Virus record (IMG/VR): IMGVR_UViG_3300028197_000002
From: a virus
Lineage: Duplodnaviria; Caudoviricetes
Length of the DNA stretch: 64,000 nt
Strand: one strand, 5' to 3'
The translations under genes and the position numbers were made by a program. Position 1 is the first letter of the stretch. The number at the start of each line of letters is the position of its first letter. The notes beneath the pieces are model-generated. The model was not told the DNA's origin and ran no database searches. It saw only the letters and a list, made by a program, of their open reading frames with translations. Shown in pieces: positions 24,752 through 63,545 of the stretch.

Positions 24752-25426
24752 ATGATAAAATTAAATAAAAAGATTGTTGATAAAACAACTTTCTATTATT
24801 GTGCTGTATCAATGGGAGTTGATAGTGTTGCTAGTTATTTGTATTTGAAAAACAAATCTTATAATATAGCTCCTGTTCATATAAATCATAATTTAAGACC
24901 TCAAAATGATTTGATGGAAGATAAGTATCGTGAATTATGTCTTCACACAGGGGACAAACCAAGGGTGTTTAAAGCGTCTTTTGAAACTATGAAAACGGAA
25001 TTAGATTTCAGAGGTTTTCGAATAGAAAGCTTTTCTAAACTCTCTGATCCATCTAAGGGTCTAATTAAACCTAATGTGATTACTGCTCATCATTTGAATG
25101 ATTGGGTTGAAAGCTATTTGCTTAATTGTCTTAGAGGTCATCCTAAGAATAGAGTAATGTCATTGGTTAGTGACTTCGCTGATTTTGAAATCACTCATCC
25201 TTTTCTTCTGACCAGAAAAAAAGATTTTAAAAGATATCTAGTTAGAAATAATTATTTAAAATTTGTTGTTGAAGATGAAACTAATAAAATTTTAAAAGGA
25301 AGTCGGAGAAATTGGATTAGGAATTTTTTAGTTCCAGAAATGAAAAAGCAAAAGCTTTCTTTAGAAAAACACGCAAAAAGAAGCATTACAAAATTGACAG
25401 AGGAGTTCGAATCAGTTAGGATTTAG
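24752..25426 (+). CDS. tilS: tRNA(Ile)-lysidine synthetase, minimal catalytic domain
   Basis: PP-loop AVSMGVDS, HINHNLR, TAHHLNDWVESYLLNCLRG, HPFL, DETN..RRNWIR; tRNA(CAU) starts 7 nt after the stop. Confidence 0.88.
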   Translation: MIKLNKKIVDKTTFYYCAVSMGVDSVASYLYLKNKSYNIAPVHINHNLRPQNDLMEDKYRELCLHTGDKPRVFKASFETMKTELDFRGFRIESFSKLSDPSKGLIKPNVITAHHLNDWVESYLLNCLRGHPKNRVMSLVSDFADFEITHPFLLTRKKDFKRYLVRNNYLKFVVEDETNKILKGSRRNWIRNFLVPEMKKQKLSLEKHAKRSITKLTEEFESVRI

Positions 25427-25432
25427 ATTCAT

Positions 25433-25505
25433 GGGGCGGTAGCTCAATGGTTAGAGCCGCAAACTCATAATTTGTTGGTTGGGGGTTCAAATCCCTCTCG
25501 CCCTA
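25433..25505 (+). tRNA. tRNA with CAT anticodon, probably tRNA-Ile2 (lysidine); no encoded CCA
   Basis: Full cloverleaf GGGGCGG/TCGCCCT, D arm GCTC/GAGC, loop CTCATAA (anticodon 25466-25468), T loop TTCAAAT. Ile2 rather than Met is inferred from adjacency to tilS. Confidence 0.92.
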
Positions 25506-36587: not shown

Positions 36588-36616
36588 TTTACATTTTGCT
36601 GAGTAAAAGATATAAT
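36588..36616 (+). promoter_or_regulatory. sigma70-type promoter
   Basis: TTTACA-17 bp-TATAAT upstream of 36688. Confidence 0.65.
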
Positions 36617-37183: not shown

Positions 37184-38077
37184 ATGGAAAACATTAATTT
37201 TAAAGATTTCTTTGTAGATGACTCTTTTTATACAAAAAAAGGTCAAGCAGAGATACTTAAAAACAATTTGGATTTAGAAGTTCAAAAAAAAATTCTTTCT
37301 AGTAATAACGATCTTTACCGTTGTAATTGTGGCGTTCTTCTAACAAGAGAACAAGAGTTTAGTTTATTTAGAAGGTTTAATTATTTTAAATATAGAATTT
37401 CTGAAATTGAAAAATGGAAAACATCTAATTCTAATAAAGAAAGAGAACGAAATAAAAAAATTAAATCTATTTTAGACATTAGAGAAATAATTATAAAATG
37501 CAATACAAGATTAATGATAAACCCAGCTAAAAAATTCTCTAATTCTCAAGACTTGGATTCTGTTGAGTGTTCTGAATATATTTCAAATGGATATGTGCAT
37601 TTGTTTAAAGCTATAGATAAATTTGATTACAATAGAGGCTTTAAATTTTCTACTTATTTTTGTAATGTATTGTTTAGAAATTTATCAAGAGACAAACAAG
37701 TTCAAATAAATAAAACTATGAATCACCATGAGCTTGATGAAAAAACTATTTCGGTTGCTGCGGAAGATGAGACTCATCAAGAGCGAATTGCAAGTTATAA
37801 TGAAGTGTTCTTGAAGAATTTGATTGCCAAATTAGAAATAGAAGATAATGCTAATAGATTAAAAAAAAGATTTAGACGATGCGACAGTCGCCACATTTCG
37901 AGATCTGTTGTTTTGAAAAGAACTTATGGAATTTGTGGTGAAAGAAAGCATACTTTGAGAGAAGTGAGTAAAGATTTAGGGGTTTCTCATGAAAGAATAA
38001 GGCAAATAAGAATACAAGCAGAAGAATTTATAAAAAGTAATTTTAATACTTTCGAACTTTACGACCCAATGTTTTAA
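37184..38077 (+). CDS. sigma70-family RNA polymerase sigma factor
   Basis: Region 2 KAIDKFDYNRGFKFSTY, region 4 TLREVSKDLGVSHERIRQI; LLTREQEFSLFRRFNYFKY recalled as Planctomycete-type. Confidence 0.9.
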   Translation: MENINFKDFFVDDSFYTKKGQAEILKNNLDLEVQKKILSSNNDLYRCNCGVLLTREQEFSLFRRFNYFKYRISEIEKWKTSNSNKERERNKKIKSILDIREIIIKCNTRLMINPAKKFSNSQDLDSVECSEYISNGYVHLFKAIDKFDYNRGFKFSTYFCNVLFRNLSRDKQVQINKTMNHHELDEKTISVAAEDETHQERIASYNEVFLKNLIAKLEIEDNANRLKKRFRRCDSRHISRSVVLKRTYGICGERKHTLREVSKDLGVSHERIRQIRIQAEEFIKSNFNTFELYDPMF

Positions 38078-41582: not shown

Positions 41583-41903
41583 ATGTCGAAAGATTTAGAT
41601 TCAATTTTTGCAGATTGGTTTGCAAAGAAATCTGAGAAAAAAGTCAATAAAATTGAAAAAAAATGGATTAAGGGCAATGAGCCTAATGATCCCGATGAAG
41701 ATTGCGGTGGCGATCATTGGCATGTTAATGAAATGATGCATTGTGGAGAGGCGTATGATATGACTTGGGACAATGCTAAAGAAGCATTTTTAGCTGGGGC
41801 TAATGGAGAAGAATGGGAGATGAGTATGAGCAACTCTCTGTTTTGTGATTTAGATGAAGTTATTTCAGATGCTTATGAACAAGGTAAAAAGGAGAATGAA
41901 TAA
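41583..41903 (+). CDS. Hypothetical acidic protein
   Basis: ORF track; TAATG coupling to next gene. Confidence 0.6.
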   Translation: MSKDLDSIFADWFAKKSEKKVNKIEKKWIKGNEPNDPDEDCGGDHWHVNEMMHCGEAYDMTWDNAKEAFLAGANGEEWEMSMSNSLFCDLDEVISDAYEQGKKENE

Positions 41904-42406
41904 TGGGTTGGGAAGTTAAAAATAATCAGTTTTTTTGTAACACAAGCGATACTTTTTTCGGCCCTTATTTAGATGAGTCAATTTGGCCCGACATGGATTG
42001 GGGATGGGATCAACCTAAGACTAGACTTTTTTATGATTGTTTTTGTGATTTTCTTGAAACGAAACCCGTAAAAGGTTTAACAGGAGATGATCCGAGGAGC
42101 TTTTCCAAAAAACAGTTGGAAAAAGTAGTTGGTCTATGGGAAGAACTTTGGATGCGACTAGAAATTGCAGTTGCAGATTTGCCATCTACTGCAAAAGAAA
42201 TGGGACTAAACCTTTCGGATAACATTAGTTCTTCTGAGAATTTATTTCGTTATATTTACGATTCTCATCAAAAAGCCTTGAAGAAAGTTGCTAAAAAGAA
42301 AGTTGCTAAAAAGAAAGTTGCTAAAAAGAAAGTTGCTAAAAAGAAAGTTGTTAAAAAGAAAGTTGTTAAAAAGAAAGTAAAGAAAAAGACTGTTAGGAAA
42401 GGTTAG
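41903..42406 (+). CDS. Hypothetical protein with histone H1-like (KKVAK)n tail
   Basis: C-terminal KKVAK x4 plus KKVVK x2. Confidence 0.7.
   Translation: MGWEVKNNQFFCNTSDTFFGPYLDESIWPDMDWGWDQPKTRLFYDCFCDFLETKPVKGLTGDDPRSFSKKQLEKVVGLWEELWMRLEIAVADLPSTAKEMGLNLSDNISSSENLFRYIYDSHQKALKKVAKKKVAKKKVAKKKVAKKKVVKKKVVKKKVKKKTVRKG
42281..42378 (+). repeat. 15-bp coding tandem repeat
   Basis: AAGAAAGTTGCTAAA x4, AAGAAAGTTGTTAAA x2, plus a partial copy. Confidence 0.95.
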
Positions 42407-48334: not shown

Positions 48335-48451
48335 ACAAATAGGTTGCAATTAAATAAAAAAAATATTTGTTTACTTTACTTTTAATAAAAATTTAACTAA
48401 AATATTATTACTTTCGCCAACTGACTATAAACTCAACAAAAAAAATACATC

Positions 48452-48462
48452 TAGTTTATGGT
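48452..48462 (+). promoter_or_regulatory. TAGTTTRYGGT motif 1
   Basis: TAGTTTATGGT after an A-tract. Confidence 0.65.
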
Positions 48463-48594
48463 TTAGTTGCTAAAGAGAGATATGGCACGATCAAATAAAA
48501 GTGCTGTGTCTTTTTTTGCCTTAAAACATCTACTTTACTTTTTGAAAATTTTAACCTAAAATATTTTTGATTTGACAATTAAAAAAAATCTAGC

Positions 48595-48605
48595 TAGTTT
48601 ATGGT
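48595..48605 (+). promoter_or_regulatory. TAGTTTRYGGT motif 2
   Basis: TAGTTTATGGT after an A-tract; TTGACA at 48572. Confidence 0.65.
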
Positions 48606-48650
48606 TTAGTTGTTAGGTCAAATTACTTGTTGTTCTTGAAAGGAACTCTA

Positions 48651-49646
48651 ATGCCTGCTACTAAGAAGAAGTCTGAGTCTGCTAAAGAAGTTAGTGTGCC
48701 TATGGCAGAAAGAAAGCCAAGGTCTAAGCTGATTGGTGTATTTGCAGGAAAAATGAAACCTGCTCCAAAATCCATCAAGAAAAATGAACGTCCTGTAATT
48801 GATTTGCCTAGAGAAATTCAAGAACAATTTGTTCGTTTTGCTGCAACTAAAAATCTGTTTGATGTTTTTGAAGATAGAAAGAAAGAGCAAACTGGTCTTC
48901 TTTATTCATCTATTTTTGAAAAGTTTGTTGACCAATTATGGGCAACGAAGAAACAGCCTCAGAATCCATCTATTGTGGTAGAAACTAATGGCAAAGTTGA
49001 TGCCAAGGGTCAATTTATTGTTCAGGTGGGCAGTAAAGTTAAGATCAACATGCCTCCTGTTGATGAAGATGATGATTCCCCTGATGAAGTGATGATTGCC
49101 GCATTGGAAAACATGGGCGTTAAAAGAGAGAATGCTGAATCTTTGATTGAAAAAGAAGTTTCTTTTGTTCCTCAATGGTCGTTGAATTTTACCGAAATGC
49201 TTCATGGTGCTACTGTTGCAGGCAAGTTCCGAGAAGCTACTGATGGTCAAATCTCTGCTAGTGAAGCATTGTTTTCTTCTATTAAAGGCATGGATGAAAA
49301 TGGGGAAAGTCTTGATGCAAAAGGAAGACTTGCTTTGCTTAAAAAGTTTTCTGTAGAAGATTGGCAACTGCTTGCTAAGAATATTGATAGTCATACCTCC
49401 TACTATCCTCAATTACTTTCGGGTGGAGATTTTCTTGATCGAGTTTGCGATTATGCAGATTTCCGAGAAGAATTAGATGCTATTTTGACTATGTTCCGAC
49501 CTGTTCATTTTTGCCAGCGGGTAAAGTTCGCTGTAGACGCAACAGGTGAGGATCGTCAAAATAAATTGGTTGCCGAAGCAATTTCTGCAATCACTGGCGA
49601 AGAAAACAATCATGATATTCAATTATCATACATGGGTCGTTCATAA
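48651..49646 (+). CDS. Hypothetical protein
   Basis: Long ORF, GAAAGGA RBS before ATG 48651. Confidence 0.75.
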   Translation: MPATKKKSESAKEVSVPMAERKPRSKLIGVFAGKMKPAPKSIKKNERPVIDLPREIQEQFVRFAATKNLFDVFEDRKKEQTGLLYSSIFEKFVDQLWATKKQPQNPSIVVETNGKVDAKGQFIVQVGSKVKINMPPVDEDDDSPDEVMIAALENMGVKRENAESLIEKEVSFVPQWSLNFTEMLHGATVAGKFREATDGQISASEALFSSIKGMDENGESLDAKGRLALLKKFSVEDWQLLAKNIDSHTSYYPQLLSGGDFLDRVCDYADFREELDAILTMFRPVHFCQRVKFAVDATGEDRQNKLVAEAISAITGEENNHDIQLSYMGRS

Positions 49647-49706
49647 AATTTAGAAGTGGTTTCTAAGTTTTGTTGTTTGTGTGTTTTTCCTTGAAAGGGA
49701 ATGTAA

Positions 49707-50063
49707 ATGTCGAAGACTGCTGAAAAGATTAACAAGAGTAAGATGGTTCGTGATTATCTTGCCGCCAATAATGATGCTGATACAAATAGTGTTGTAGAGC
49801 ATTTTAAGAGTGAAGGGATTGAGATTAACAAGCAATTTGTTTATCAAACCCGAACTCATATCAAGAACCCAAAGAAGCGTTCTTCTACCAATCCGAAAGC
49901 GAAGTCTTTCGCTAAGGCTAAGGCTAAAGCTAAAACTTCTTCTAAGCCAAAGATGGATCATTATGATTCTTTGGTTGCTGCCAAGAGGTTGCTTGAGTCT
50001 GTTGGGGGTGATTTGGGTCAAGCAAAAAAGAGTCTAGACACTCTTACCAAACTCATTTCGTAA
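49707..50063 (+). CDS. Small basic nucleoid-type protein (Planctomycete-like family)
   Basis: NKSKMVRDYL..GIEINKQFVY..AKAKAKAK..DSLVAAKRLLESVGGDLGQAKKSL. Confidence 0.65.
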   Translation: MSKTAEKINKSKMVRDYLAANNDADTNSVVEHFKSEGIEINKQFVYQTRTHIKNPKKRSSTNPKAKSFAKAKAKAKTSSKPKMDHYDSLVAAKRLLESVGGDLGQAKKSLDTLTKLIS

Positions 50064-50150
50064 GATGGTCTGGAACACTCAAAACACTCATTTCGTTGCT
50101 GAGAGGGGAAATAAGCCTCCAACTCAAAGCAACGAAATGAGTTTGTTTTG

Positions 50151-50840
50151 TTATATGTATTTTGAACTTCTGGAAATTTTACATGTATCATCAAACATAA
50201 TTAAACTGTCTATTGCTGAGATTAAGGCATCAGAAGTTAGGTTTAACATTTGTTTGTCTGATCTTAATTCGTGAACTATTTCTAATTGCAAAGAATTTAC
50301 GAATTGGTTTGGATACCACTTTTTGAAAAGTTGATTTAAATTATTTTTTGCCCTTCCTGCATATCTTTTTTTACCTTCATAAACACCAAATCCTTCATCT
50401 TCTAAAAAACTTACAAAGGCACTTTTTATTTTTGGAGAGCAAGTGTGGGAATATGAACTTGGGCCATGTCCGTACCCAACAATTATGTCAAGTTCTGGAT
50501 CATCTACATATTTTCTTACGCTGTCTCCACATCCATGAATATTTATTATAAAAACTCTTTCATCTAATGTTCTTTGTATTCTTGCAACATTTCTCAATAT
50601 TGGCTCTAAAAATTCTTCTCTTACAACGTCTTCTTGAATGTGAGATATGTTATTGCAGTCTGCCCTGTCATTTAGATGATCGACAGAATATCCTTTTTTC
50701 CACCCTCTATTAATAACAGAAAAAAGATTCATTTCTGATGCAACTAACTCTACAAGATAATCTGTATTTAAGTCATCTGGCCCATGTGGTGCAACTAATA
50801 CTACTGGCAAATCGCCTTTTGATACGCTAACTCTTTCCAT
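50151..50840 (-). CDS. N-formylglutamate amidohydrolase-like Zn hydrolase
   Basis: LVAPHG, INIHG, SLQLEI. Confidence 0.55.
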   Translation of the reverse strand: MERVSVSKGDLPVVLVAPHGPDDLNTDYLVELVASEMNLFSVINRGWKKGYSVDHLNDRADCNNISHIQEDVVREEFLEPILRNVARIQRTLDERVFIINIHGCGDSVRKYVDDPELDIIVGYGHGPSSYSHTCSPKIKSAFVSFLEDEGFGVYEGKKRYAGRAKNNLNQLFKKWYPNQFVNSLQLEIVHELRSDKQMLNLTSDALISAIDSLIMFDDTCKISRSSKYI

Positions 50841-50889
50841 TTTGACCTTTAAAATTAATATTATTTGTATCGAACATAAAAAAATAAAG

Positions 50890-50900
50890 TAGTTTACGGT
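50890..50900 (+). promoter_or_regulatory. TAGTTTRYGGT motif 3
   Basis: TAGTTTACGGT upstream of the sigma-like gene. Confidence 0.65.
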
Positions 50901-50913
50901 ACTAATTCGCAGA

Positions 50914-51930
50914 ATGATTATTTCTTTCGAAAGGAAACCTATGAATAATTTAGTTATTTCCCATAATAAATTATCAAAATCTGATGTTTTTGAAATCTCT
51001 CAAGAATTATCTGCTGTAAATTTAATTCTTAAAAAATATCATCAGAAGATGGCGACCAGAAAAGGCAGAAAAGGTTATCGAGACAGTGAGGGGAATAGTT
51101 TTACCGTTATTGATCTATTAAACTTAATTTATAAAAATAGAAAAGAAGATTGTATTAAAGTAAAAGGAATTTTAATTGATTGTGAAGATGTAGAGAAACT
51201 ATGCAATATTAAAGAAAAAGAATATTTACTTTTAAGCAACTATTCTCGTATGTTTTACGCTTTGTCTAAAAAACATTTTCTTTCTACTTCCATGTATGAC
51301 ATGGAAGATTTACAGAACGAATGTATAACTGCTTGTTTAAAGGCAATGTATGGATATGATGCTGAAACAGCAGGCAGGCAGCAAGTCGCTTCTCTTTTCA
51401 CATTTCTCTATAGGTCTGTGAATAATCATTTAATTAAGCTGAGTCGGACTATGCTTTCATCTCTAGACCGCAAAGCAGTAAAAATCAAATGTAAATTTAT
51501 GGACTTGAAAAATGAAAATCCCAATCTTACTTTTGATGATTTGGTTTCTAAATTAAGTTTATCTCCAAAAGAATTGAAAATATTAACCTGTGCTTTATCT
51601 TCAACCGTTTATCGAGAATCAGATTGCAATGGGGAAGATAAATCCTTGATTATTAATCAAGTTGTTGCAGAAAAAGAAAAAGAGTTGGAATTAGTAGAAT
51701 CTACTGTTATGAAAAACATGGGAGAAATTATTTTTACTTTATCTGAATTGGAGAAAGAAGTTTTACGGGGGTATTTGAATGAGAAATACCCTAGTGGAAA
51801 AAAGTCAAATCGAGGAATTGGCAAATTTGCAAAAAATTTAATTAATCCAAAAACTAAAAAACCATACAGTAGAATGGCTATAAGTTATGCTTGGAAGCGG
51901 GTTCAGGAAAAAATTAAAAAGGCTGCGTAA
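50914..51930 (+). CDS. Divergent sigma70-like factor
   Basis: Region-2-like DMEDLQNECITACLKAMYGYD..FTFLYRSVNNHL; region-4-like LSELEKEVL..YSRMAISYAWKRVQEKI; ends KKAA; start may be 50941. Confidence 0.65.
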   Translation: MIISFERKPMNNLVISHNKLSKSDVFEISQELSAVNLILKKYHQKMATRKGRKGYRDSEGNSFTVIDLLNLIYKNRKEDCIKVKGILIDCEDVEKLCNIKEKEYLLLSNYSRMFYALSKKHFLSTSMYDMEDLQNECITACLKAMYGYDAETAGRQQVASLFTFLYRSVNNHLIKLSRTMLSSLDRKAVKIKCKFMDLKNENPNLTFDDLVSKLSLSPKELKILTCALSSTVYRESDCNGEDKSLIINQVVAEKEKELELVESTVMKNMGEIIFTLSELEKEVLRGYLNEKYPSGKKSNRGIGKFAKNLINPKTKKPYSRMAISYAWKRVQEKIKKAA

Positions 51931-51943
51931 AAAAAAATAAAAG

Positions 51944-51954
51944 TAGTTTGCGGT
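51944..51954 (+). promoter_or_regulatory. TAGTTTRYGGT motif 4
   Basis: TAGTTTGCGGT upstream of the RuvB-like gene. Confidence 0.65.
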
Positions 51955-51980
51955 ATTTTTACCCTGAAGGAGAAAAACTA

Positions 51981-53120
51981 ATGCTTGAAAATTCATCCCA
52001 AGTCCAAAATGAGTTACTATTTAGAAAATTGACTGTTGAAGAAAGAAAATGGAAAATCTCCAGAAAGAATCCCGAATGCCCATTAAATAAATTCATTGGC
52101 AATCCCAAGGCTATCAGAAGGCTCGCTAGGGCTGCTTTTTCTGCTATGGGCAATAGGAATAGAGATTGTTCTGATTACTCTCTAGCTGTTTGTGGGCCTC
52201 CATCAACGGGTAAGACTTATTTGACGAAATTATTTGCTAAAACTATAGGTTTGCCATTAGTTGTAATCGAGCCTCAAACAGTAAAAAGAGTACAAAATAT
52301 TTTTGATGAAATTGCTTTGACTTGTCGTGAATTTTCTTGTGATGACATAGTTCAAGCTGGAGAATTGACGCTTAAGGCGGATGATAAAGGAAAGTTCTCG
52401 TTACCTCCAGTAATTGTTTTTATAGATGAAGTTCATAATCTTAAGTCAAATGTGGTTCAAGGTCTTTTGAAAGCAACAGAACCTAATGATAGGATTATGA
52501 TTACGGAAGAAGGTCAGCAAATTGCTACAAATAAAGTTTGTTGGATGATTGCTACAACAGATCGTGGAGATTTGTTTGATGCTTTCGACACTAGGTTTCA
52601 AAAAGTTAATCTTAGACTATATTCTAAAGACGAAATGGCTAAGATTGTCCAAATGAATAATTCTGATTGGGATATGGATGTTTGTAGGTTAGTTGCGACA
52701 TATAACCCTATTGTCCCAAGAGAAGCGATTGCTTTTGCTAAAGACATGCGCGTTGAACATGAAATGAATCCATCTGAGTGGCTGAATGTTGCCAAAAGAA
52801 CAGCGGAGGATCATGGAATAGATGAATTTGGAATGACCTATGCCAGATTGAATGTTCTTAAAGCATTAGGGCGATCAACGATGTCAGCATCACAGATGCC
52901 ATTTGTTGTTCATGTTAAAGAAGATGAATTGAAAAAGTATATTATGCCTCCTCTACTTGCAAGGACTCCTGACCAACAAGTTCCTTTTGTAACTGTTTGT
53001 AGCAGAGGATATTCTATAACAAAGGCTGGACTTGCAGAGTTAGACAAGAGAGGGATTTCTCATAGGGGACTTAAAGCAATGCCGGAGTCGGTCGCAGAAA
53101 TGTTTACGGATGCTGCATAA
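51981..53120 (+). CDS. RuvB-like AAA+ ATPase (Holliday junction helicase family)
   Basis: GPPSTGKT, FIDEVH, IATTDRG..FDTRF, RLYSKDE, GIDEFG, SRGYSIT winged-helix tail; ends DAA. Confidence 0.8.
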   Translation: MLENSSQVQNELLFRKLTVEERKWKISRKNPECPLNKFIGNPKAIRRLARAAFSAMGNRNRDCSDYSLAVCGPPSTGKTYLTKLFAKTIGLPLVVIEPQTVKRVQNIFDEIALTCREFSCDDIVQAGELTLKADDKGKFSLPPVIVFIDEVHNLKSNVVQGLLKATEPNDRIMITEEGQQIATNKVCWMIATTDRGDLFDAFDTRFQKVNLRLYSKDEMAKIVQMNNSDWDMDVCRLVATYNPIVPREAIAFAKDMRVEHEMNPSEWLNVAKRTAEDHGIDEFGMTYARLNVLKALGRSTMSASQMPFVVHVKEDELKKYIMPPLLARTPDQQVPFVTVCSRGYSITKAGLAELDKRGISHRGLKAMPESVAEMFTDAA

Positions 53121-53131
53121 AAAAACAATAT

Positions 53132-53142
53132 TAGTTTGTGGT
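53132..53142 (+). promoter_or_regulatory. TAGTTTRYGGT motif 5
   Basis: TAGTTTGTGGT after an A-tract. Confidence 0.65.
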
Positions 53143-53181
53143 AACTGAAGAAAGAAACACTTACTTAAAAAGGAGATTATT

Positions 53182-53346
53182 ATGCCCAATTGGTTGAAAG
53201 CTACGCTTGCATGTGGATTGGTTTGCTTGTTCATTCCACCTTTAATTGGTCTTTTTCTTGGCGGTGGTATTGTATTCATCGCATTTATAGTAGTGTGTCA
53301 TTTGGCGAGTGCAGCGGGAATACCCACTAAGTTTCTTGATGATTAA
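53182..53346 (+). CDS. Small membrane protein (54 aa)
   Basis: AAGGAG RBS; MPNWLKATLACGLVCLFIPPLIGLFLGGGIVFIAFIVVCH..., translated by hand. Confidence 0.65.
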   Translation: MPNWLKATLACGLVCLFIPPLIGLFLGGGIVFIAFIVVCHLASAAGIPTKFLDD

Positions 53347-53357
53347 GGATTGTAAGG

Positions 53358-53555
53358 ATGCAAGAAAAATATAAAGAAGCATTTAATATTTTAGAAGATT
53401 TAAAATTAATTCCAGAAGTAAATGATGAAGATTTAAATAAAATAAGTCATGTTCTTCGCTTCCAAAGAGAACTTATGTCTGTCTATTCAAGTGCTGTTAA
53501 TACTTTAGTTTCTGAAAAAATTAAACTTCAAGAGGAATTAGATGCAAATAATTAA
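53358..53555 (+). CDS. Small hypothetical protein
   Basis: ORF track, overlapping gene chain. Confidence 0.55.
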   Translation: MQEKYKEAFNILEDLKLIPEVNDEDLNKISHVLRFQRELMSVYSSAVNTLVSEKIKLQEELDANN

Positions 53556-53781
53556 AACAAAATCACTTGTTGATTACATGAAAAAAAGATCAACCCTAGA
53601 GGGTAGAAATTGGAACATTCCTGATTCTTATCTGGAAGAAATGTTTGTTCAAAAAGGGACTAGAATTTTTTTTGGTGTGGTTTTAGATGATTTAGGAAAT
53701 ATGTTAGAAGATAAAAAGAATAAAGATTTTTTCTTGTGTTGGCAACGAATGGAAGCAGAGCGTACTTTTGATGCAAGGTAA
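53542..53781 (+). CDS. Small hypothetical protein
   Basis: ORF track, overlapping gene chain. Confidence 0.55.
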   Translation: MQIIKTKSLVDYMKKRSTLEGRNWNIPDSYLEEMFVQKGTRIFFGVVLDDLGNMLEDKKNKDFFLCWQRMEAERTFDAR

Positions 53782-53965
53782 AAAAGTATATTTTAATACG
53801 AAGTCTCAATATGGAGTGGAAACCGTAGATGAATTAAGCAAGAAAGATTTTATTGATTTCGCAGCGTTTAATGCCGAAGTCAAAAGATTGTCTAAAGAAT
53901 ATACTCTTGCTGGTATGTCGGTTTATGTTAGTCAAAGATCATGTAAAGAATGGGGTCGGCAATGA
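53768..53965 (+). CDS. Small hypothetical protein
   Basis: ORF track; ATGA coupling to the ligase. Confidence 0.55.
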   Translation: MMQGKKVYFNTKSQYGVETVDELSKKDFIDFAAFNAEVKRLSKEYTLAGMSVYVSQRSCKEWGRQ

Positions 53966-55245
53966 GTTTTAAAGAATTAGAGAAATTTGTAGAAAAACTT
54001 AAATCCACAACAAGTACGCTTGATAAAGTAGAAATAATTAAAAATTGCAATTCTGATTTTATAAAAAATATTATTTTATATACATACCATCCTTTCAAGC
54101 AGTATCATGTTACTAGCAAAAATTTAAAGAAACGAAATGATTTGTTGGGTGTGCAAATGTGCCATTCTGATTTTTTTTCTTTACTAGATGGTCTTTCAAG
54201 TAGAGAAATTACTGGTCACGATGCAATTAAATCTGTAAATGCTTTTGTTTCAAACAATTCTGAGTATGAAGAACTTATTCATTGCGTAATTGATAAAGAT
54301 TTAAAAACTAGAACTGCTGCGAAGTTGATTAACAAGGCTTTGCCTAATTTCATTCCTGAATTTAGTGTTGCTCTTGCTGATGTCTATGCACCTAAATTAG
54401 TAAGCTGGAAAGATGAATGGTATGTCTCTAGAAAGCTAGATGGAGTTAGGTGTATCGCTGTTATAGACGATTTAGGAAACCCTACGCTCTATTCCAGAAC
54501 AGGAAAAGAATTTCATACCCTTGATGTTGTTGCTTCTGATGTTCGCAAACTAAAACTTAGAAATCAAGTTTTAGATGGAGAACTATGTCTGGTGGATGAA
54601 GATGGGAATGAAGACTTTCAAGGAATAATGAAACAGTTAAAGAAAAAAGATCATACGATTGCCAATCCATCCTATAAGGTATTTGATTTTTTAAATTTAG
54701 ATGAATTTAATTCAAAGGTTGGAGAGAGAAATCTTTCTCAAAGATTGAAATGTTTGTCAGAGACATTCCCAGAGGATTCAAATTCAACATTGTCTGTCTT
54801 GGAGCAAGAGATTGTTCAAGATGATGGTCATTTTGAAAATTGGATTTCAAAATCAAAGGAAAATGGTTGGGAAGGTTGTATGCTTAGAAAAAATACGGCA
54901 TACAAAGGAAAACGAAGCAAGGATTTGCTCAAATGCAAGTCGTTTTATGATAACGAATATGAAGTTCTGTCAACAGAGACAGGCCAATTTAGATATGTAA
55001 AAGATGGTTCTGAAACTGAAGAAGAAATGCTTTCTGCTGTCATTATTAAGCATAAAGGCCATGAAGTTCGTGTAGGGAGTGGTTGGAGTGTTGAGCAAAG
55101 ACAAGAGTATTTTAAGAACCCAGAAGGAATTATTGGAAAATTAATCTGTGTTCAATACTTTGAAGAAACTAAAAATCAATCTGGCGGGATTAGTTTGAGA
55201 TTTCCTACTATTAAGCATGTTTACGGAAATTCAAGAGATTTATAA
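53962..55245 (+). CDS. ATP-dependent DNA ligase
   Basis: SRKLDGVRC, LDGEL, VFDFL, EGCMLR, LKCK, OB-fold C-terminus with SLRFP. Confidence 0.95.
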   Translation: MSFKELEKFVEKLKSTTSTLDKVEIIKNCNSDFIKNIILYTYHPFKQYHVTSKNLKKRNDLLGVQMCHSDFFSLLDGLSSREITGHDAIKSVNAFVSNNSEYEELIHCVIDKDLKTRTAAKLINKALPNFIPEFSVALADVYAPKLVSWKDEWYVSRKLDGVRCIAVIDDLGNPTLYSRTGKEFHTLDVVASDVRKLKLRNQVLDGELCLVDEDGNEDFQGIMKQLKKKDHTIANPSYKVFDFLNLDEFNSKVGERNLSQRLKCLSETFPEDSNSTLSVLEQEIVQDDGHFENWISKSKENGWEGCMLRKNTAYKGKRSKDLLKCKSFYDNEYEVLSTETGQFRYVKDGSETEEEMLSAVIIKHKGHEVRVGSGWSVEQRQEYFKNPEGIIGKLICVQYFEETKNQSGGISLRFPTIKHVYGNSRDL

Positions 55246-55289
55246 TAAAAATAGCAAAAAGATGCTCTTTTCTCATCTACATAACTTAC

Positions 55290-55697
55290 ATGAAGATGCC
55301 AGAGGTGTTATTATCTAATCTTAGGGATATGGTTTTTGAAAGAAATATAGAAAAAGTAAAATCTATATTAGAACTTTCCCCTGACGAAAAATTAATTCCA
55401 GAGGAATTTGTTACTTTGGATGAAGTTAATTTAATTGTTTTGGAAAGTTTGGAAGAAGAAGATGTCAAACATATTGAAGAAAGTGAAAATATTTTATATT
55501 CAATATCTCTTTCTGCAAGCACTTTAAAAAGCATTTTTTACAAGATTAAAACTAGAATTTTCACTAATTATATGTCAAAATTAGTTTCACGGGGCTTTTT
55601 TGAATGTGCTTTTTCAGAAGAAGATAATGATTTCATTTTTTCTGTATCTGAAAAAGGCAAGAAACACGGAATTGAAAAAATTCCTGAATGGTTATAA
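55290..55697 (+). CDS. Hypothetical acidic protein
   Basis: ORF track. Confidence 0.6.
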   Translation: MKMPEVLLSNLRDMVFERNIEKVKSILELSPDEKLIPEEFVTLDEVNLIVLESLEEEDVKHIEESENILYSISLSASTLKSIFYKIKTRIFTNYMSKLVSRGFFECAFSEEDNDFIFSVSEKGKKHGIEKIPEWL

Positions 55698-55707
55698 AGG
55701 ATTCTAA

Positions 55708-55902
55708 ATGCAAAACGAAACTCATTCTGAGTATTGTTCTCTTTCAAATTTTGATTGGCAAAGATTTAATAAAAAAGTCGAAAATTTGTTGAGTAAAATA
55801 AAATCAAAAAAAGAAGCAGAGAATACTATTTTAATTTTGAATTTAATTAAAACAAAAGACGCTCAACTAATTAATTTGGAGAGCGAAAATGAAGAATGTT
55901 AG
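55708..55902 (+). CDS. Small hypothetical protein
   Basis: ORF track. Confidence 0.5.
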   Translation: MQNETHSEYCSLSNFDWQRFNKKVENLLSKIKSKKEAENTILILNLIKTKDAQLINLESENEEC

Positions 55903-56078
55903 CAACTTTACTTACAGCCATTATTATACTAGGATTATATTATTTATTTTGGGGCGACTCAAATGATGATAATAATAATAATGATGATGATAATGAACTG
56001 AAAGAAATAGACGATGACGTAATCGCCTATGCAATAGTTAATGATATGTTTGATAATGATGGAGTTGAAATTGATTAA
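55896..56078 (+). CDS. Small single-pass membrane protein with Asp/Asn tail
   Basis: N-terminal hydrophobic helix. Confidence 0.55.
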   Translation: MLATLLTAIIILGLYYLFWGDSNDDNNNNDDDNELKEIDDDVIAYAIVNDMFDNDGVEID

Positions 56079-56433
56079 AAAAGTTTTTCTCGTATTGGGA
56101 TTGTTTGTTTGTGGCTGTAGTTCTATTTCTTTTAGAGCAAATGCGGATGAGTTTTTCATTCAGCCTCATATAGCACCTGCGGTTAAAGTAGAACAGTATC
56201 CGAGTTATTGGTATCAGGAATATCCAAGATACTTTGTTCCTCCAAGAGTTTATCCAACAAATCCTTATCACCTTCCTCCAACTTATATCATCCCTTCTTC
56301 TCCAACTCCTTATTACTATCTCCCAGCCCCAATATATCCATCTTATCCATCTTATGTAAATGTTCCTGTTTTAGTTGAAAGAGGATTTTTTTGCAAAAGA
56401 TATCATTGGACATATCAGCGACGATATTGGTGA
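56071..56433 (+). CDS. Pro/Tyr-rich putative lipoprotein
   Basis: TTG start, KKVFLVLGLFVCGC lipobox-like signal. Confidence 0.5.
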   Translation: MIKKVFLVLGLFVCGCSSISFRANADEFFIQPHIAPAVKVEQYPSYWYQEYPRYFVPPRVYPTNPYHLPPTYIIPSSPTPYYYLPAPIYPSYPSYVNVPVLVERGFFCKRYHWTYQRRYW

Positions 56434-56674
56434 TTTTCCAGATAAGATGATGGAGATGTCAAATCAAAATTCTTTATGGACTCTCGGAGTTCAGACTTTT
56501 TAAATTTTTTAACTAAGATGACAAATAATTTTTCTCCTGCATCTTTAAATAAGCAGGGGATTATGCCGTTGATAATTAATTGAAAGCCATGTTTTAATAT
56601 TATAAATCCATATTTGGACGCAAATAAGAAATGAGCTAGATATTCCATTTCTTTTTCTTTTGAATGTTTGCTCA

Positions 56675-56896
56675 TTATTCTTTTGTTTTATCGAAATTTT
56701 TGTATTTAAATTTCTTTACATCAATATTTTTTTCGTCTGCTTTTGGCCCAAGTTTTTGTATTGCATCTGCCGCGATTGAAGTGAAATAAAGAGCCGGATT
56801 TTCGCCTCTAATGTATCCGTCAGGATACGCCCAATGAGCAAGCCCTGTTCGACTTTGCTTTTCGTTCAATAATACAAATTCTTTAAAACTAATCAT
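56675..56896 (-). CDS. Small protein with T4-type leader
   Basis: MISFKEFVLLNE; CTAAATA 9 nt upstream (56906-56911). Confidence 0.65.
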   Translation of the reverse strand: MISFKEFVLLNEKQSRTGLAHWAYPDGYIRGENPALYFTSIAADAIQKLGPKADEKNIDVKKFKYKNFDKTKE

Positions 56897-56948
56897 AATA
56901 AATAATATTTAGTTGCTGGGAAGCCAAAATGTGAAAAATATTTGAGAT

Positions 56949-56959
56949 TAGTTTGCGGT
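56949..56959 (+). promoter_or_regulatory. TAGTTTRYGGT motif 6
   Basis: TAGTTTGCGGT(ATAAG) upstream of 56993. Confidence 0.65.
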
Positions 56960-56992
56960 ATAAGCATACACATTTATAGAGGATGAGCTTAT

Positions 56993-57346
56993 ATGATAGA
57001 CGAACCGGAAGAATATTGTTTTGATAGTCTTTCTTCAACTTTGAATATTTTAAATTCAAAGAATTTAGTTGAAATAGCCAAAGAAAAAGGCAGATTGTCT
57101 CAAGAACAAGAAAAAAGATTATTAAATTATGCAATTAAATCAGATAAATGCTCTGTTTTGATTGAATATGCCTACGCAATGCACTCAAAACTACCAGAAG
57201 AAATGCACAATTTTGTTGTTATGAACTCTGGGAGAGTTTCATTAAGTTACTTTAAATTACTGAATACTTTGAAGTCTAGCCTTAAAAGTATGGCATCAGT
57301 TGTTGGTGATAATTCAACTTTGAAACAAGTTATTGAAGAAATGTAA
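56993..57346 (+). CDS. Hypothetical protein
   Basis: ORF track, AGGA RBS. Confidence 0.6.
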   Translation: MIDEPEEYCFDSLSSTLNILNSKNLVEIAKEKGRLSQEQEKRLLNYAIKSDKCSVLIEYAYAMHSKLPEEMHNFVVMNSGRVSLSYFKLLNTLKSSLKSMASVVGDNSTLKQVIEEM

Positions 57347-58109
57347 AATGAATAAATCTGTTAAGAGTAGAATTATAGAACAATTTCAAAATGTGATTCT
57401 GTCAGAATCAAAAGTTACATTTTACAAAGACTATGACCGAAACAATGTTTTTATTGAAAAAGGTTCTACTGGTTACATAAAGAATTTCAAAGAACTTTGT
57501 GGAACTATAAGTCTTTTGAAATTTGAATTTTTTGAAACAAACGATGGCAGAGAATTTCCATATCGTGAAGTTAAACTTTTTCTTTTTGAAGCAGAAAAAC
57601 TTTTATGTGATTCCAGTTTGTTTCCATTTTTTTTCATACAAGGCAGTCAATTAGAAAACGGCATTCGAATTTCTAACTATGAATATTTAGAATACGTTTT
57701 TAATCATTCTTCCCATAGAGGAATATCAGATAGTAAAAAATTTGCTATGATCGCTGTAAAACATAAAACAAGACTTCCCAAAAAGATTGAGGAAGTAATT
57801 CTTGGCAACTATAAATTATCTAATCATTACTCAAGTGCTTTTGACATTAACTTGACTGAATTTCAACAAAAAGAATTTTTAAAAGATAAAACAGGAAGTT
57901 TTGCTGCAAAATATTCGATGGACTTGATAGATCGTCGAATAGAGGTTCCTGATTTCTTGCATAATTACTTGCTTTCTTTGAAGGCATTTGGGAATTTGTC
58001 TTCAATTGTAGAAATAAAGGGAAATGGCGAATTTGTTCCATCTTTAAATTATTTTGTTGAAATGTATATTAAAAAATCTGAAAATGAACATAAAAAAAAT
58101 TCAGAGTAG
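57333..58109 (+). CDS. Hypothetical protein
   Basis: ORF track. Confidence 0.65.
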   Translation: MKKCKMNKSVKSRIIEQFQNVILSESKVTFYKDYDRNNVFIEKGSTGYIKNFKELCGTISLLKFEFFETNDGREFPYREVKLFLFEAEKLLCDSSLFPFFFIQGSQLENGIRISNYEYLEYVFNHSSHRGISDSKKFAMIAVKHKTRLPKKIEEVILGNYKLSNHYSSAFDINLTEFQQKEFLKDKTGSFAAKYSMDLIDRRIEVPDFLHNYLLSLKAFGNLSSIVEIKGNGEFVPSLNYFVEMYIKKSENEHKKNSE

Positions 58110-58117
58110 TTTGCGGT
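58107..58117 (+). promoter_or_regulatory. TAGTTTRYGGT motif 7
   Basis: TAGTTTGCGGT overlapping the stop of 57333-58109. Confidence 0.65.
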
Positions 58118-58132
58118 AGAGTTATAGAATGA

Positions 58133-58348
58133 ATGATACTTGTAACTAAGGAGAATCAAATGAGAATACCTGAACCCGGACATGACAAAGGTTGGGGCGT
58201 GACTTTCGTAGCGTCACTAGCTTGGGCTTTTATTGGTATAGTTGCTCTTATGCTTTTGGGATTAAGTGTTCCAATTCTTATTCCAATCGCAATTTTTGGA
58301 CTTGGTACTTATACTTACGGACTGTTTTGTAAAAACATTGATGACTGA
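58133..58348 (+). CDS. Small membrane protein
   Basis: Two hydrophobic helices; AAGGAG RBS favours ATG near 58160. Confidence 0.6.
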   Translation: MILVTKENQMRIPEPGHDKGWGVTFVASLAWAFIGIVALMLLGLSVPILIPIAIFGLGTYTYGLFCKNIDD

Positions 58349-58398: not shown

Positions 58399-59493
58399 AT
58401 GTCTGTTGTAGAATCTAAAGTTGTTGAGTCTATTAGTCTTTATTTCAATGCTGGTAGTAGCGATAAAGTTTACAATGCTTCTATTGAAGAATTTGATGGC
58501 AAGTATGTCGTCAACTTTGAATACGGACGCAGAGGTAGTGCTTTGAAATCAGGAAGTAAGACTTCTAGCCCTGTTTTGTTACAGGATGCTAAGATTGCTT
58601 ATGAAAAATTGATTAAAGAAAAGACTAAAAAAGGTTATCAAAAATTAGAAGGTGCGTATGATAAGCAGATTCTAGTTTCTGATTTGCCTGAAACTCAAGT
58701 TGTTGATTCTAAATGCGTATTGTTAAACCCAATTACAGGAGATGAAGTTAATGTTTATTGTGACAATCCTGATTGGATTGTTCAAGAAAAAATGGATGGA
58801 GTTAGATTTATGCTCCATAGGCAAGGTGGAAAGGTAACGTCTTATAATAGACGAGGGGTTTACGCTAACATTCCGGTAGACATTTACAATTTGACAAAAG
58901 ACTTGAAAGAAGATTTTTTCATTGATGGAGAACTTGTTGGAGAAGTCATGTATGTTTTTGACATGCTAGAATATAAAGGTAAAGACTATAGGGAAAGTTC
59001 GTTTTCCGAAAGGTTTAAGCAACTAAGAAGTTTTGTGAAAAGTTTGCCTAATCAAGATTGTATTGTTTTGACCAAGACCGCAAATAAAAACAAAATTAAA
59101 TTTGTAAATGAACTTGAGGAAAACAATAAAGAAGGAGCCGTATTCAAGAATAAAAACGCATCTTATTATGTAGGACGACCTGCTAGTGGAGGTGATTACG
59201 TCAAATTTAAGTTTTACAGCACTTGTAGTTGCGTTGTAAAAGAACTCAATGGAACTAAAAGAAGTGTTTTTCTTGAATTATTCAAAAACAAGAAAGCTGT
59301 AAAAGCAGGAAAGGTTACTATCCCTGCAAACTTTGATATTCCAGAAGTAGGACAAGTAGTAGAAGTTCGATACTTATATGCTTATAAGCAGTCAGGTGCA
59401 TTGTATCAGCCTGTTTACTTGGGCGTGAGAGATGATATTGTTCCAAGTGAATGCCAGCAGGCTCAATTAAAATATAAGTCGGAAGAAGATTAA
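58399..59493 (+). CDS. WGR domain plus ATP-dependent DNA ligase
   Basis: SDKVY..YGRRG..KEKTKKGY (WGR); QEKMDGVR, IDGEL, VFDML, EGAVFK, VKFK; EVRYLY. Confidence 0.88.
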   Translation: MSVVESKVVESISLYFNAGSSDKVYNASIEEFDGKYVVNFEYGRRGSALKSGSKTSSPVLLQDAKIAYEKLIKEKTKKGYQKLEGAYDKQILVSDLPETQVVDSKCVLLNPITGDEVNVYCDNPDWIVQEKMDGVRFMLHRQGGKVTSYNRRGVYANIPVDIYNLTKDLKEDFFIDGELVGEVMYVFDMLEYKGKDYRESSFSERFKQLRSFVKSLPNQDCIVLTKTANKNKIKFVNELEENNKEGAVFKNKNASYYVGRPASGGDYVKFKFYSTCSCVVKELNGTKRSVFLELFKNKKAVKAGKVTIPANFDIPEVGQVVEVRYLYAYKQSGALYQPVYLGVRDDIVPSECQQAQLKYKSEED

Positions 59494-60663: not shown

Positions 60664-61464
60664 ATGATAATTAAAGATAAAAAATTTCTTTGGACTCATC
60701 CGCTAAAAATGGGTGGAACAAGTTTCAGAACAGTTTTAGTAACTCTGTTTAGTGATGGCAACACTCATGCAAGTCAAGGTGGTGGCAAGATAACTCTTAA
60801 TGATGGTCATAGATCATTAAAAAGTCTGTTGAGCATAGACCCCAAATACAAAAAATTTTACAAGGTTAGTTTATGTAGAAATCCGTGGGACAGAGTAGTT
60901 AGTTTCTGGTATCACAATAAGCGTCATATGGTATTGAATCGTGATACTTCTAAAGACTTAATAAATTCAAAATGCCAAGGATTTGCTCCGAGAAATATAG
61001 ATCAAATATTTTGGCAAAGTTGCACTTTTGAAGAATATTTGCAAAGCAAATACATAAATGATCTTTGTCCAAAAAAGTTTTATGTTTTTAATAACATTGA
61101 AGTAGATGAATATATTCGATACGAGCATTTTGAACTTGACATAGCGAATGTATTAAAAAAATTAGGTGTAAAAAGTAGCGAATATAAGCTACAGAACTTT
61201 AGTCACGATACTGCTCGAAAATGGGGAGTAGATGATTATCGAACGTACTACAATGACGACCAAGCTGAATTTATAGGCGAAAAATTTAAATATGAAATTA
61301 AAAAATTTAATTATTTGTTTGACAATGGCTGTAGAAAAAACTCTGAATCATATAAAAATGAATTAAAATCACGCATACGCCAAAACAAAGAAAAAATACA
61401 AAAACTGCAAAAACAAGTAGCTGTTGATGAATCTAAATTAAACAAGGAATACAAAGCAATATGA
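60664..61464 (+). CDS. Sulfotransferase family 2 protein with C-terminal coiled coil
   Basis: WTHPLKMGGTS, CRNPWDRVVSFW, IRYEHF. Confidence 0.82.
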   Translation: MIIKDKKFLWTHPLKMGGTSFRTVLVTLFSDGNTHASQGGGKITLNDGHRSLKSLLSIDPKYKKFYKVSLCRNPWDRVVSFWYHNKRHMVLNRDTSKDLINSKCQGFAPRNIDQIFWQSCTFEEYLQSKYINDLCPKKFYVFNNIEVDEYIRYEHFELDIANVLKKLGVKSSEYKLQNFSHDTARKWGVDDYRTYYNDDQAEFIGEKFKYEIKKFNYLFDNGCRKNSESYKNELKSRIRQNKEKIQKLQKQVAVDESKLNKEYKAI

Positions 61465-63346: not shown

Positions 63347-63545
63347 ATGGACAGAAATTAAAAAGTGGGCTAAAGAAAACAACCTTAGTATTTCTAAGAC
63401 TCCCAAAATAGATGAATTTATCTGGGGAGACAAGAAATATAGCAATTTAAATAAATTAGTCGCTGACTTGTATAATGAACTAACTAATAATGTTCATTTA
63501 GAGCATCAAAAAAACTATAAAAAAAACAATAGTAGTTCATGGTAG
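63339..63545 (+). CDS. Small hypothetical protein
   Basis: ORF track, overlap coupling. Confidence 0.5.
   Translation: MYKWTEIKKWAKENNLSISKTPKIDEFIWGDKKYSNLNKLVADLYNELTNNVHLEHQKNYKKNNSSSW

Follow-up and report, generated by a model that had tools for sequence, protein, structure and literature searches.

A strand-specific array of a promoter-like element and a divergent sigma factor gene in a giant marine T4-like phage

The motif array and the genes around it

The viral sequence IMGVR_UViG_3300028197_000002, a stretch of 64,000 nucleotides hereafter called the window, comes from a giant, uncultured, marine, T4-like phage and carries the short motif TAGTTTRYGGT in the vicinity of a divergent sigma factor gene (50941-51930, the 50941 sigma); the longest contig encoding this sigma protein spans 372,493 bp. 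A pattern search returns seven exact copies of the motif, at 48452, 48595, 50890, 51944, 53132, 56949 and 58107, all on the + strand, with no copy on the minus strand, exactly as they had been placed in an initial annotation of the sequence. That annotation had read the copies as a non-canonical promoter or activator box defining a seven-copy regulon around the sigma factor. Our analysis supports this interpretation in part: the promoter-like element and the identity of the sigma factor stand, while the proposed -10 frame and the size of the regulon do not.

Dinucleotide-preserving shuffles of the window contain 0.09 copies on average and 1 at most, in line with the previous estimate of about 0.1 chance hits per strand. 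The motif ends in GGTA in five of the seven copies, as already counted, and in GGTT in the other two. All seven lie between genes or overlap a stop codon, i.e. in or at the edge of intergenic gaps as first described, and in six cases the start codon of a + strand gene with a good Shine-Dalgarno site follows 37-56 nt downstream; no open reading frame (ORF) follows the copy at 48452. An A-tract had been reported before every copy, which holds for six, where a run of 7-9 A ends 5-7 nt 5' of the motif; at 56949 it is reduced to AAAAA, 10 nt upstream. With a relaxed pattern, two more copies come in, an eighth at 63533 in front of uvdE and a ninth at 60900. The features of the window that concern the array are as follows, where the start sites are predicted from the frame argued for below.

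48438..48463, +, putative promoter copy 1: A-tract 48438-48445, motif 48452-48463 (GGTT), predicted start 48469
48469..48519, +, putative short hairpin RNA driven by copy 1: perfect 19-bp stem from the predicted start, ending in a U-run
48572..48606, +, putative promoter copy 2: TTGACA 48572-48577, A-tract 48581-48588, motif 48595-48606, predicted start 48612
48651-49646, +, 331-residue gene (from gene calls), putatively driven by copy 2
50878..50901, +, putative promoter copy 3 (TAGTTTACGGTA), before the sigma gene: predicted start 50907
50941..51930, +, divergent full-length sigma-70-family factor, 329 residues: candidate reader of the motif
51929..51955, +, putative promoter copy 4: A-tract begins at the sigma stop codon, predicted start 51961
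51981..53120, +, AAA+ ATPase, 379 residues (from gene calls), clamp-loader-like by PHROG
53119..53143, +, putative promoter copy 5: predicted start 53149, heads nine co-oriented genes at 53182-56433
53962-55245, +, ATP DNA ligase gene, within the gene run of copy 5
56934..56960, +, putative promoter copy 6, with a weak A-tract: predicted start 56966, would drive 56993-57346 and 57348-58109
58092..58118, +, putative promoter copy 7: TAG is the stop codon of the upstream gene, predicted start 58124
58160-58348, 58399-59493 (WGR-ligase) and genes beyond, +, putatively driven by copy 7
60900..60911, +, intragenic copy TAGTTTCTGGTA without A-tract, in a 266-residue gene: doubtful as a promoter
63519..63544, +, eighth copy (TAGTTCATGGTA, one mismatch, full A-tract): predicted start 63550, would drive uvdE from 63584

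Some gene starts differ from those first assigned, which lay too far upstream: the sigma gene begins at 50941 rather than 50914 and the AAA+ gene at 51981 rather than 51948, and the start of the 331-residue gene is likewise revised to 48651. The revised starts rest on the gene calls of identical contigs and on homologue lengths. An alternative genetic code was rejected because table 11 yields normal ORFs. The intragenic copy at 60900-60911 is kept in the relative L028, where either chance or an internal promoter is possible.

Three further loci, L027, L034 and L047, overlap the window or one another with 0-1 mismatches, and can be stitched with it into 90.8 kb. Over 48,452-88,031 of this stitched genome, the looser pattern TAGT[TC][TC]NNG[GT]T[AT] has 25 + strand occurrences and no minus-strand one, against ~2 expected on both strands together under a Markov null, and 24 of the 25 copies lie between genes or at gene ends. 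The 48 kb upstream of the array contain three partial + strand matches, all without an A-tract, and one minus-strand match. The seven copies of the window are thus the first members of an array that has at least 25 copies and extends to 88 kb, and not a small regulon centred on the sigma gene.

A scan of IMG/VR with the motif pattern returned single chance matches only, and the one match of a DNA search, 137 bp long, was to a 595-kb uncultured phage. Three marine metatranscriptome runs contain 6-26% of the sampled words.

The conserved unit and its predicted start site

A logo was made from 30 aligned copies of this genome and two diverged relatives, with index 0 at the first T of the motif. 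It describes a conserved unit of ~26 bp composed of the A-tract (-14 to -8), cAAAG (-5 to -1) and TAGTTTRYGGTA, whose invariant core TAGTTT-R-Y-GGTA occupies 0-11, with rigid spacing from index -14 to +11. Past the core there are four unconserved positions, after which index 16 shows a weak preference for T and index 17 for A. Every unit directly precedes either a small RNA or a gene on the + strand, and the motif forms no secondary structure. No hexamer is conserved upstream of the A-tract in the 30-copy logo. A TTGACA-like hexamer 16-18 bp upstream is present only at 48595 (TTGACA, 17 bp before TAGTTT) and is lacking in 24 of 25 copies, in agreement with the earlier remark that there is usually no -35 element.

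The A-tract and the 12-mer are kept at orthologous intergenic sites in the relatives L036-38, L031 and L046, whose sigma orthologues are 85%, 58% and 54% identical, respectively. The kept sites lie upstream of the 331-residue gene, the AAA+ gene, the small ORF after it, a 117-residue gene and the ORF preceding the WGR-ligase. Among the same relatives, the sequence directly 3' of GGTA has wholly diverged.

The phage also carries canonical promoters of the form TTGACA/TTTACT-N16-17-TATAAT, at eight intergenic sites of the window.

21805, 22508, 31838, 33986, 36588, 48013, 48375 and 48534, intergenic: canonical promoters
48375..48403, repeated at 48534-48562, +, canonical-type promoter TTTACT-N17-TAAAAT, in tandem, upstream of copies 1 and 2

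The repeated module, CTACTTTACTTT...TTAACCTAAAAT, lies ~60-75 nt before copies 1 and 2, and L036, L031 and L046 have kept it. The TTGACA-N17-TAGTTT arrangement at 48595 is kept in L036 and L031, and copy 2 may be a dual promoter that is also of the sigma-70 type.

The excess of copies, their confinement to one strand and to intergenic sites, the rigid logo, the conserved block amid diverged flanks, and the tandem arrangement with canonical promoters and with terminators lead us to conclude that the array very probably represents a phage-specific promoter class. The strand specificity and the placement before genes also bear out the earlier proposal of a non-canonical promoter-like element.

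The start site of this putative promoter can be approached from the sequence 3' of the core. Index 16 is a pyrimidine in 27 of 34 copies (binomial p 2e-4) and index 17 a purine in 31 of 34 (binomial p 1e-6). No functional Shine-Dalgarno site begins earlier than index 17, and at least five have their first base at 17-18. Two called genes, of 80 and 86 residues, have no Shine-Dalgarno site and have their ATG exactly at index 17. The 86-residue gene has full-length homologues, and the terminator hairpin, A-tract, motif, five variable nucleotides and ATG at index 17 are all kept in homologues with 81% and 61-70% protein identity.

L047 10780-10880 (~87.95-88.05 kb of the stitched genome): terminator, motif and 86-residue gene with a putatively leaderless mRNA, found in three lineages (also L049, L051-L053)

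Because the terminator is directly upstream, this gene would hardly be expressed by read-through; its mRNA is probably leaderless, starting at the A of the AUG. The hairpin RNA of copy 1 also begins flush at index 17, and the RNA taken from this position folds into a hairpin of -21.5 kcal/mol (z -5.15). Since copy 1 has no ORF and is followed by the 19-bp hairpin and U-run from index 17, its product is probably a short RNA of the phage that carries its own terminator. In the relative L036, a longer and different hairpin RNA occupies the position of this RNA.

With fairly good confidence, we thus place the start of transcription at the purine 6 nt after GGTA, i.e. index 17. The promoter frame that follows from this start is, in our judgement, the likelier one: the 12-mer would span -17 to -6, with T-12, a variable -11, Y-10, GG at -9/-8, T-7 and A-6, and the A-tract would fall at ~-31 to -25, centred near -28. 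The corresponding hexamer, T-R-Y-G-G-T, keeps T-12 and T-7, and its -11 position is A in 16 of 30 copies, G in 9 and C in 5. A second frame, in which TAGTTT itself serves as a TAnnnT-type -10 hexamer with a start at index 11-13, seems the less likely of the two; the hexamer fits the TAnnnT consensus, but the start is disfavoured by the ATG and Shine-Dalgarno evidence. The frame of the initial annotation, in which the terminal TA opens the -10 hexamer, does not survive, as its sixth position is T in only 14 of 34 copies and the start it implies would lie within or past several Shine-Dalgarno sites and two start codons. Nor can the motif be a -35 box, since the distance from it to the ribosome-binding sites that follow is only 6-12 nt.

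The 50941 sigma and its relatives

Taken alone, the 50941 protein of the window gave no Pfam and no PHROG match. A profile of 12 homologues matches region 2 of the sigma-H structure 3mzy (E 6.7e-5), and six of the 12 match Pfam Sigma70_r2 (best 1e-5). The AlphaFold model (predicted local distance difference test, pLDDT, 75.6) places helices where domains 2, 3 and 4 are expected, with a disordered linker predicted at 221-251. Nearly all of the top 50 PDB entries retrieved by Foldseek belong to RNA polymerase initiation complexes, the matched chain being a sigma and in most cases primary sigma A. The alignments extend over ~330-350 columns, nearly the whole protein, with a probability of 1.00; the template-modelling (TM) scores are only 0.3-0.4 because the relative positions of the domains differ. 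By profile, Pfam and predicted fold, the product is a genuine full-length sigma-70-family factor, consistent with the sigma-like call made for the ORF previously started at 50914 and with the statement that one motif copy, at 50890, precedes its gene.

An exhaustive profile search of the sigma family recovered, at 50% identity, 133 clusters with E below 1e-30; at the looser limit of 1e-10 there are 375, and almost all members have 300-360 residues. It is on account of these 133 and 375 metagenome clusters that we regard the family as large and uncharacterised. Among cultured phages, no homologue was found by tblastn against the 50,697 phage records of INPHARED, and no relative in IMG/VR searched with the sigma profile. 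The C-termini of the 12 aligned members are Ala-Ala or Val-Ala in 11 and Thr-Gly in one, an observation that bears on ClpX degrons.

The genes surrounding the sigma gene are maintained to a great extent, as seen in relatives including the more distant P0143 and P0146, which were compared by their gene tables.

50151-53120: divergent ~230-residue gene (minus strand), sigma gene and AAA+ ATPase gene, a trio also present in L031, L033 and L046

In all six relatives that have a gene table, the sigma gene has the AAA+ gene directly behind it; in five of the six, the distant freshwater ones included, the divergent minus-strand gene precedes the sigma gene. On the short P0143 contig, a + strand dehydrogenase gene stands before the sigma gene instead, and the sigma-AAA+ pair is kept. 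The AAA+ protein may work with the sigma factor. The divergent protein, of 229 residues in the window, has only a sub-threshold match to FGase.

The roles of the residues in regions 2.4 and 4.2 of E. coli sigma-70 are established. Aligned to that protein, the 50941 sigma departs in regions 2.4 and 4.2 from the residues responsible for reading TATAAT and TTGACA, and its 4.2 helix has no equivalents of E585 and R588. These are retained in a second sigma encoded by the same phage, which also keeps KFSTY and is related to cellular primary sigmas.

37184..38077, +, second phage sigma, RpoD-like: 4.2 helix SHERIRQI, downstream of the canonical promoter at 36588

Because of its RpoD-like residues and the canonical promoter at 36588, the 37184 sigma pairs naturally with the canonical promoters.

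In the freshwater relatives L033 and L039, gene order is shared and the sigma is 33-35% identical; the motif is absent, and obvious TTGACA-N17-TATAAT promoters are seen instead. The motif is thus present only with a sigma orthologue of at least 54% identity. At the sigma/AAA+ site orthologous to copy 4, these two relatives carry TGGTTTnnGCCA (L033 11009-11020, L039 11027-11038), and a MAFFT alignment of TGGTTTnnGCCA to the motif leaves 7 of 12 positions invariant. This sequence may be a diverged form of the promoter, which we take as a lead rather than a result.

Candidate readers and comparison with known promoter classes

The assignment of the motif to the 50941 sigma seems to be plausible, its chances being about even. 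The fuller explanation that we favour, namely a phage-specific prereplicative (middle-type) promoter read by this sigma on the host core RNA polymerase, we rate a little lower than that. In this mechanism, host core RNA polymerase carrying the 50941 sigma would read the motif, domains 3 and 2 of the sigma would contact the 12-mer in the manner of a long extended -10 element, and a -35 hexamer would not be needed. The motif copy of the sigma gene would provide positive feedback, and some transcripts would be leaderless. Transcripts reading through from the canonical promoters at 48375 and 48534 could supply the first sigma, because no + strand terminator was found between 48064 and 52120; in T4, likewise, middle genes are initially reached when early transcripts are extended. 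We propose this reader because the motif is confined to the clade of close orthologues, with a possibly co-varying site in the freshwater relatives; because the recognition helices of the 50941 sigma are non-canonical and the other phage sigma is RpoD-like; and because phiEco32 gp36 gives a precedent (PMC12276001).

Several points weigh against this explanation. The copy of the sigma gene itself is full in this genome and in L036-38, but degenerate in L031 and L046. The freshwater variant TGGTTTnnGCCA recurs only 1-3 times per 21 kb, and the co-occurrence of motif and sigma covers only two clades. In the cascades of SPO1 and T4, it is the preceding holoenzyme that transcribes a sigma gene. By this precedent, a motif before the sigma gene argues equally for another reader. 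The conserved TTGACA-N17-TAGTTT at 48595 favours the frame with TAGTTT as the hexamer, and -11 is the least conserved position of the block, unlike sigma-70-type recognition. Lastly, the A-tract would lie where T4 has its MotA box (PMC2988021).

The strongest competing explanation, though a less likely one in our view, is a cascade: the motif would be recognised by an earlier factor, and the 50941 sigma, itself made from this regulon, would direct a later class. The reader could then be the 37184-38077 sigma, a sigma delivered with the virion, or host sigma-70 with a MotA/AsiA-like activator bound to the A-tract. A sigma gene behind the motif occupies the usual place of the next sigma, as in SPO1 and T4, and the centre of the A-tract near -28 is close to the MotA box at -30 (both PMC2988021). 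TAGTTT fits TAnnnT and is preceded at 48595 by a conserved TTGACA exactly 17 bp upstream, and the operon of the 37184 sigma, lying behind a canonical promoter, would be made first. However, the 37184 sigma retains the TTGACA-reading residues, although a -35 hexamer is lacking in 24 of 25 copies, and the invariant G, T, T and YGGTA exceed the requirements of sigma-70 region 2 at the middle promoters of T4. No homologue of MotA or AsiA was found among the proteins scanned, a scan limited to the window. Nor was a second conserved motif class, readable by the 50941 sigma, found in 91 kb; a k-mer search for one in 1-47 kb and in the freshwater relatives returned only a coding KKVAKK tandem repeat.

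Considerably less probable is a host-read "super" early promoter, i.e. a conserved version of what the host housekeeping holoenzyme prefers, without any phage factor. Early promoters of T4 also have extra conserved positions and A-rich upstream elements (PMC2988021), terminator-plus-promoter spacers do occur here, and the small ORFans in one orientation resemble early hyperplastic regions with promoter early stem-loop (PeSL) cassettes (PMC2839356). This reading is difficult to reconcile with the ordinary canonical promoters of the same phage, some in tandem with the motif, which imply two distinct classes, and with a motif that has no -35 hexamer and a variable -11. That the motif is no promoter at all, but a site for processing or protein binding on the RNA, or for cassette shuffling by DNA recombination, seems very improbable: strand specificity and intergenic position would fit an RNA signal too, and modular shuffling via repeated spacers is possible (PMC2839356), but the motif forms no secondary structure, follows intrinsic terminators, directly precedes a gene without a Shine-Dalgarno site or other promoter as well as a stand-alone hairpin RNA, and loses its conservation 5 nt before a pyrimidine-purine pair, as a promoter would, and a recombination role would add to a promoter role rather than exclude it.

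A -7 box of the Bacteroidota sigma-A type (TAnnTTTG) was also considered and rejected, since only one base separates TA from TTT. Bacteroidota mRNAs usually have no Shine-Dalgarno sites. Such a box is further disfavoured by the strong AAGGAG sites of the genes here and by the G that follows in only about one third of the copies.

Among known systems, the closest in outline is phiEco32, whose gp36 is a phage sigma reading a single -10-region element, AATGTA, centred at -11.5 with T-12 and G-11 (PMC12276001). Both cases would comprise a divergent phage sigma acting on the host core and one -10-region element with T-12 and a non-A -11, the latter in the frame predicted here, and they share the pattern of early genes using host-type promoters (PMC12276001). 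Unlike the small, two-domain gp36, the 50941 protein is full length with a sigma-3-like domain; the two have no sequence relation detectable by the tblastn search described above, the motif here is 12 bp plus an A-tract, and no gp79-like cofactor was identified.

The likeness to the middle mode of T4 (PMC2988021, PMC6755090) lies in the T4-type phage, in the prereplicative genes concerned (ligases, repair genes, ORFans), and in a phage-specific upstream box near -30 in place of a -35 element. In both, the promoters stand between co-oriented genes, often in tandem with early promoters, and read-through also reaches the genes. The differences are in sequence and machinery: T4 has the MotA box (a/t)(a/t)(a/t)TGCTTtA at -30, whereas the A-tract at ~-31 to -25 contains no TGCTT; the -10 region is not the plain sigma-70 TAnnnT in the predicted frame; and full-length phage sigmas are encoded in place of a remodelled host sigma-70, as far as the window shows. 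The late promoter of T4 (gp55), TATAAATA at -13 to -6, differs from the motif, sharing only T-7 and A-6 in the same frame. Extended -10 (TGn) promoters have T-15 and G-14 where the motif would have G-15 and T-14, so that the likeness is functional only, i.e. a long -10-region element without a -35 hexamer.

Successive sigmas of the phage SPO1, gp28 and gp33/34, redirect the host core to promoter classes with their own consensus. The phage studied here would similarly combine a phage sigma with its own promoter class, but the SPO1 classes have distinct -35 and -10 elements, and neither homology nor the A-tract architecture is shared. The PeSL cassettes are repeated promoter spacers, some with an upstream terminator hairpin, located between small accessory genes of one orientation, and the spacers may give homology for gene shuffling (PMC2839356). 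Here, a terminator with the motif is found upstream of the 86-residue gene in three lineages and a terminator follows copy 1; most copies of the window abut the upstream stop codon without a hairpin. The PeSL promoters are strong and sigma-70-like, unlike the non-canonical ones in the array.

By these comparisons, the element would function like the phage promoter classes of T4, SPO1 and phiEco32, and in its spacers it is partly like the PeSL cassettes; it fits the sequence definition of none of them. The phage-specific promoter class would thus be a known viral strategy in a new form. To our knowledge, the early-to-middle switch in T4-like phages without MotA and AsiA is poorly understood, and most marine members have neither. 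We tentatively suggest, as a possibility on the unlikely side, that an undescribed family of full-length phage sigmas replaces the MotA/AsiA middle mode in giant aquatic T4-like phages, reading a 12-bp element of the extended -10 type with a free -11 and no -35, with some starts at AUG and with a motif that co-evolves, as TAGTTTRYGGTA in marine and TGGTTTnnGCCA in freshwater lineages.

The phage offers a testable case, since it combines a dense, high-information promoter class with a candidate sigma from a large family, pairs a second, RpoD-like sigma with canonical promoters, and has a predicted start site from which leaderless messages would arise. The motif can be used for annotating transcription units and small RNAs in this uncultured lineage and, if the sigma-motif pair is true, would give an orthogonal promoter-sigma pair for engineering.

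Two minor observations come from other parts of the window. A 15-nt coding repeat at 42287-42400 (ORF 41903-42406) encodes a lysine-rich (KKVAK)n tail with a histone H1/Hc1-like look; a histone H1-like protein was sought here, prompted by the moraphage paper (PMC12619734), and no Pfam match was found. At 25394-25470, TTGACA-N17-TAGGAT is located directly upstream of a tRNA-like gene (GGGGCGGTAGCTCAATGG...).

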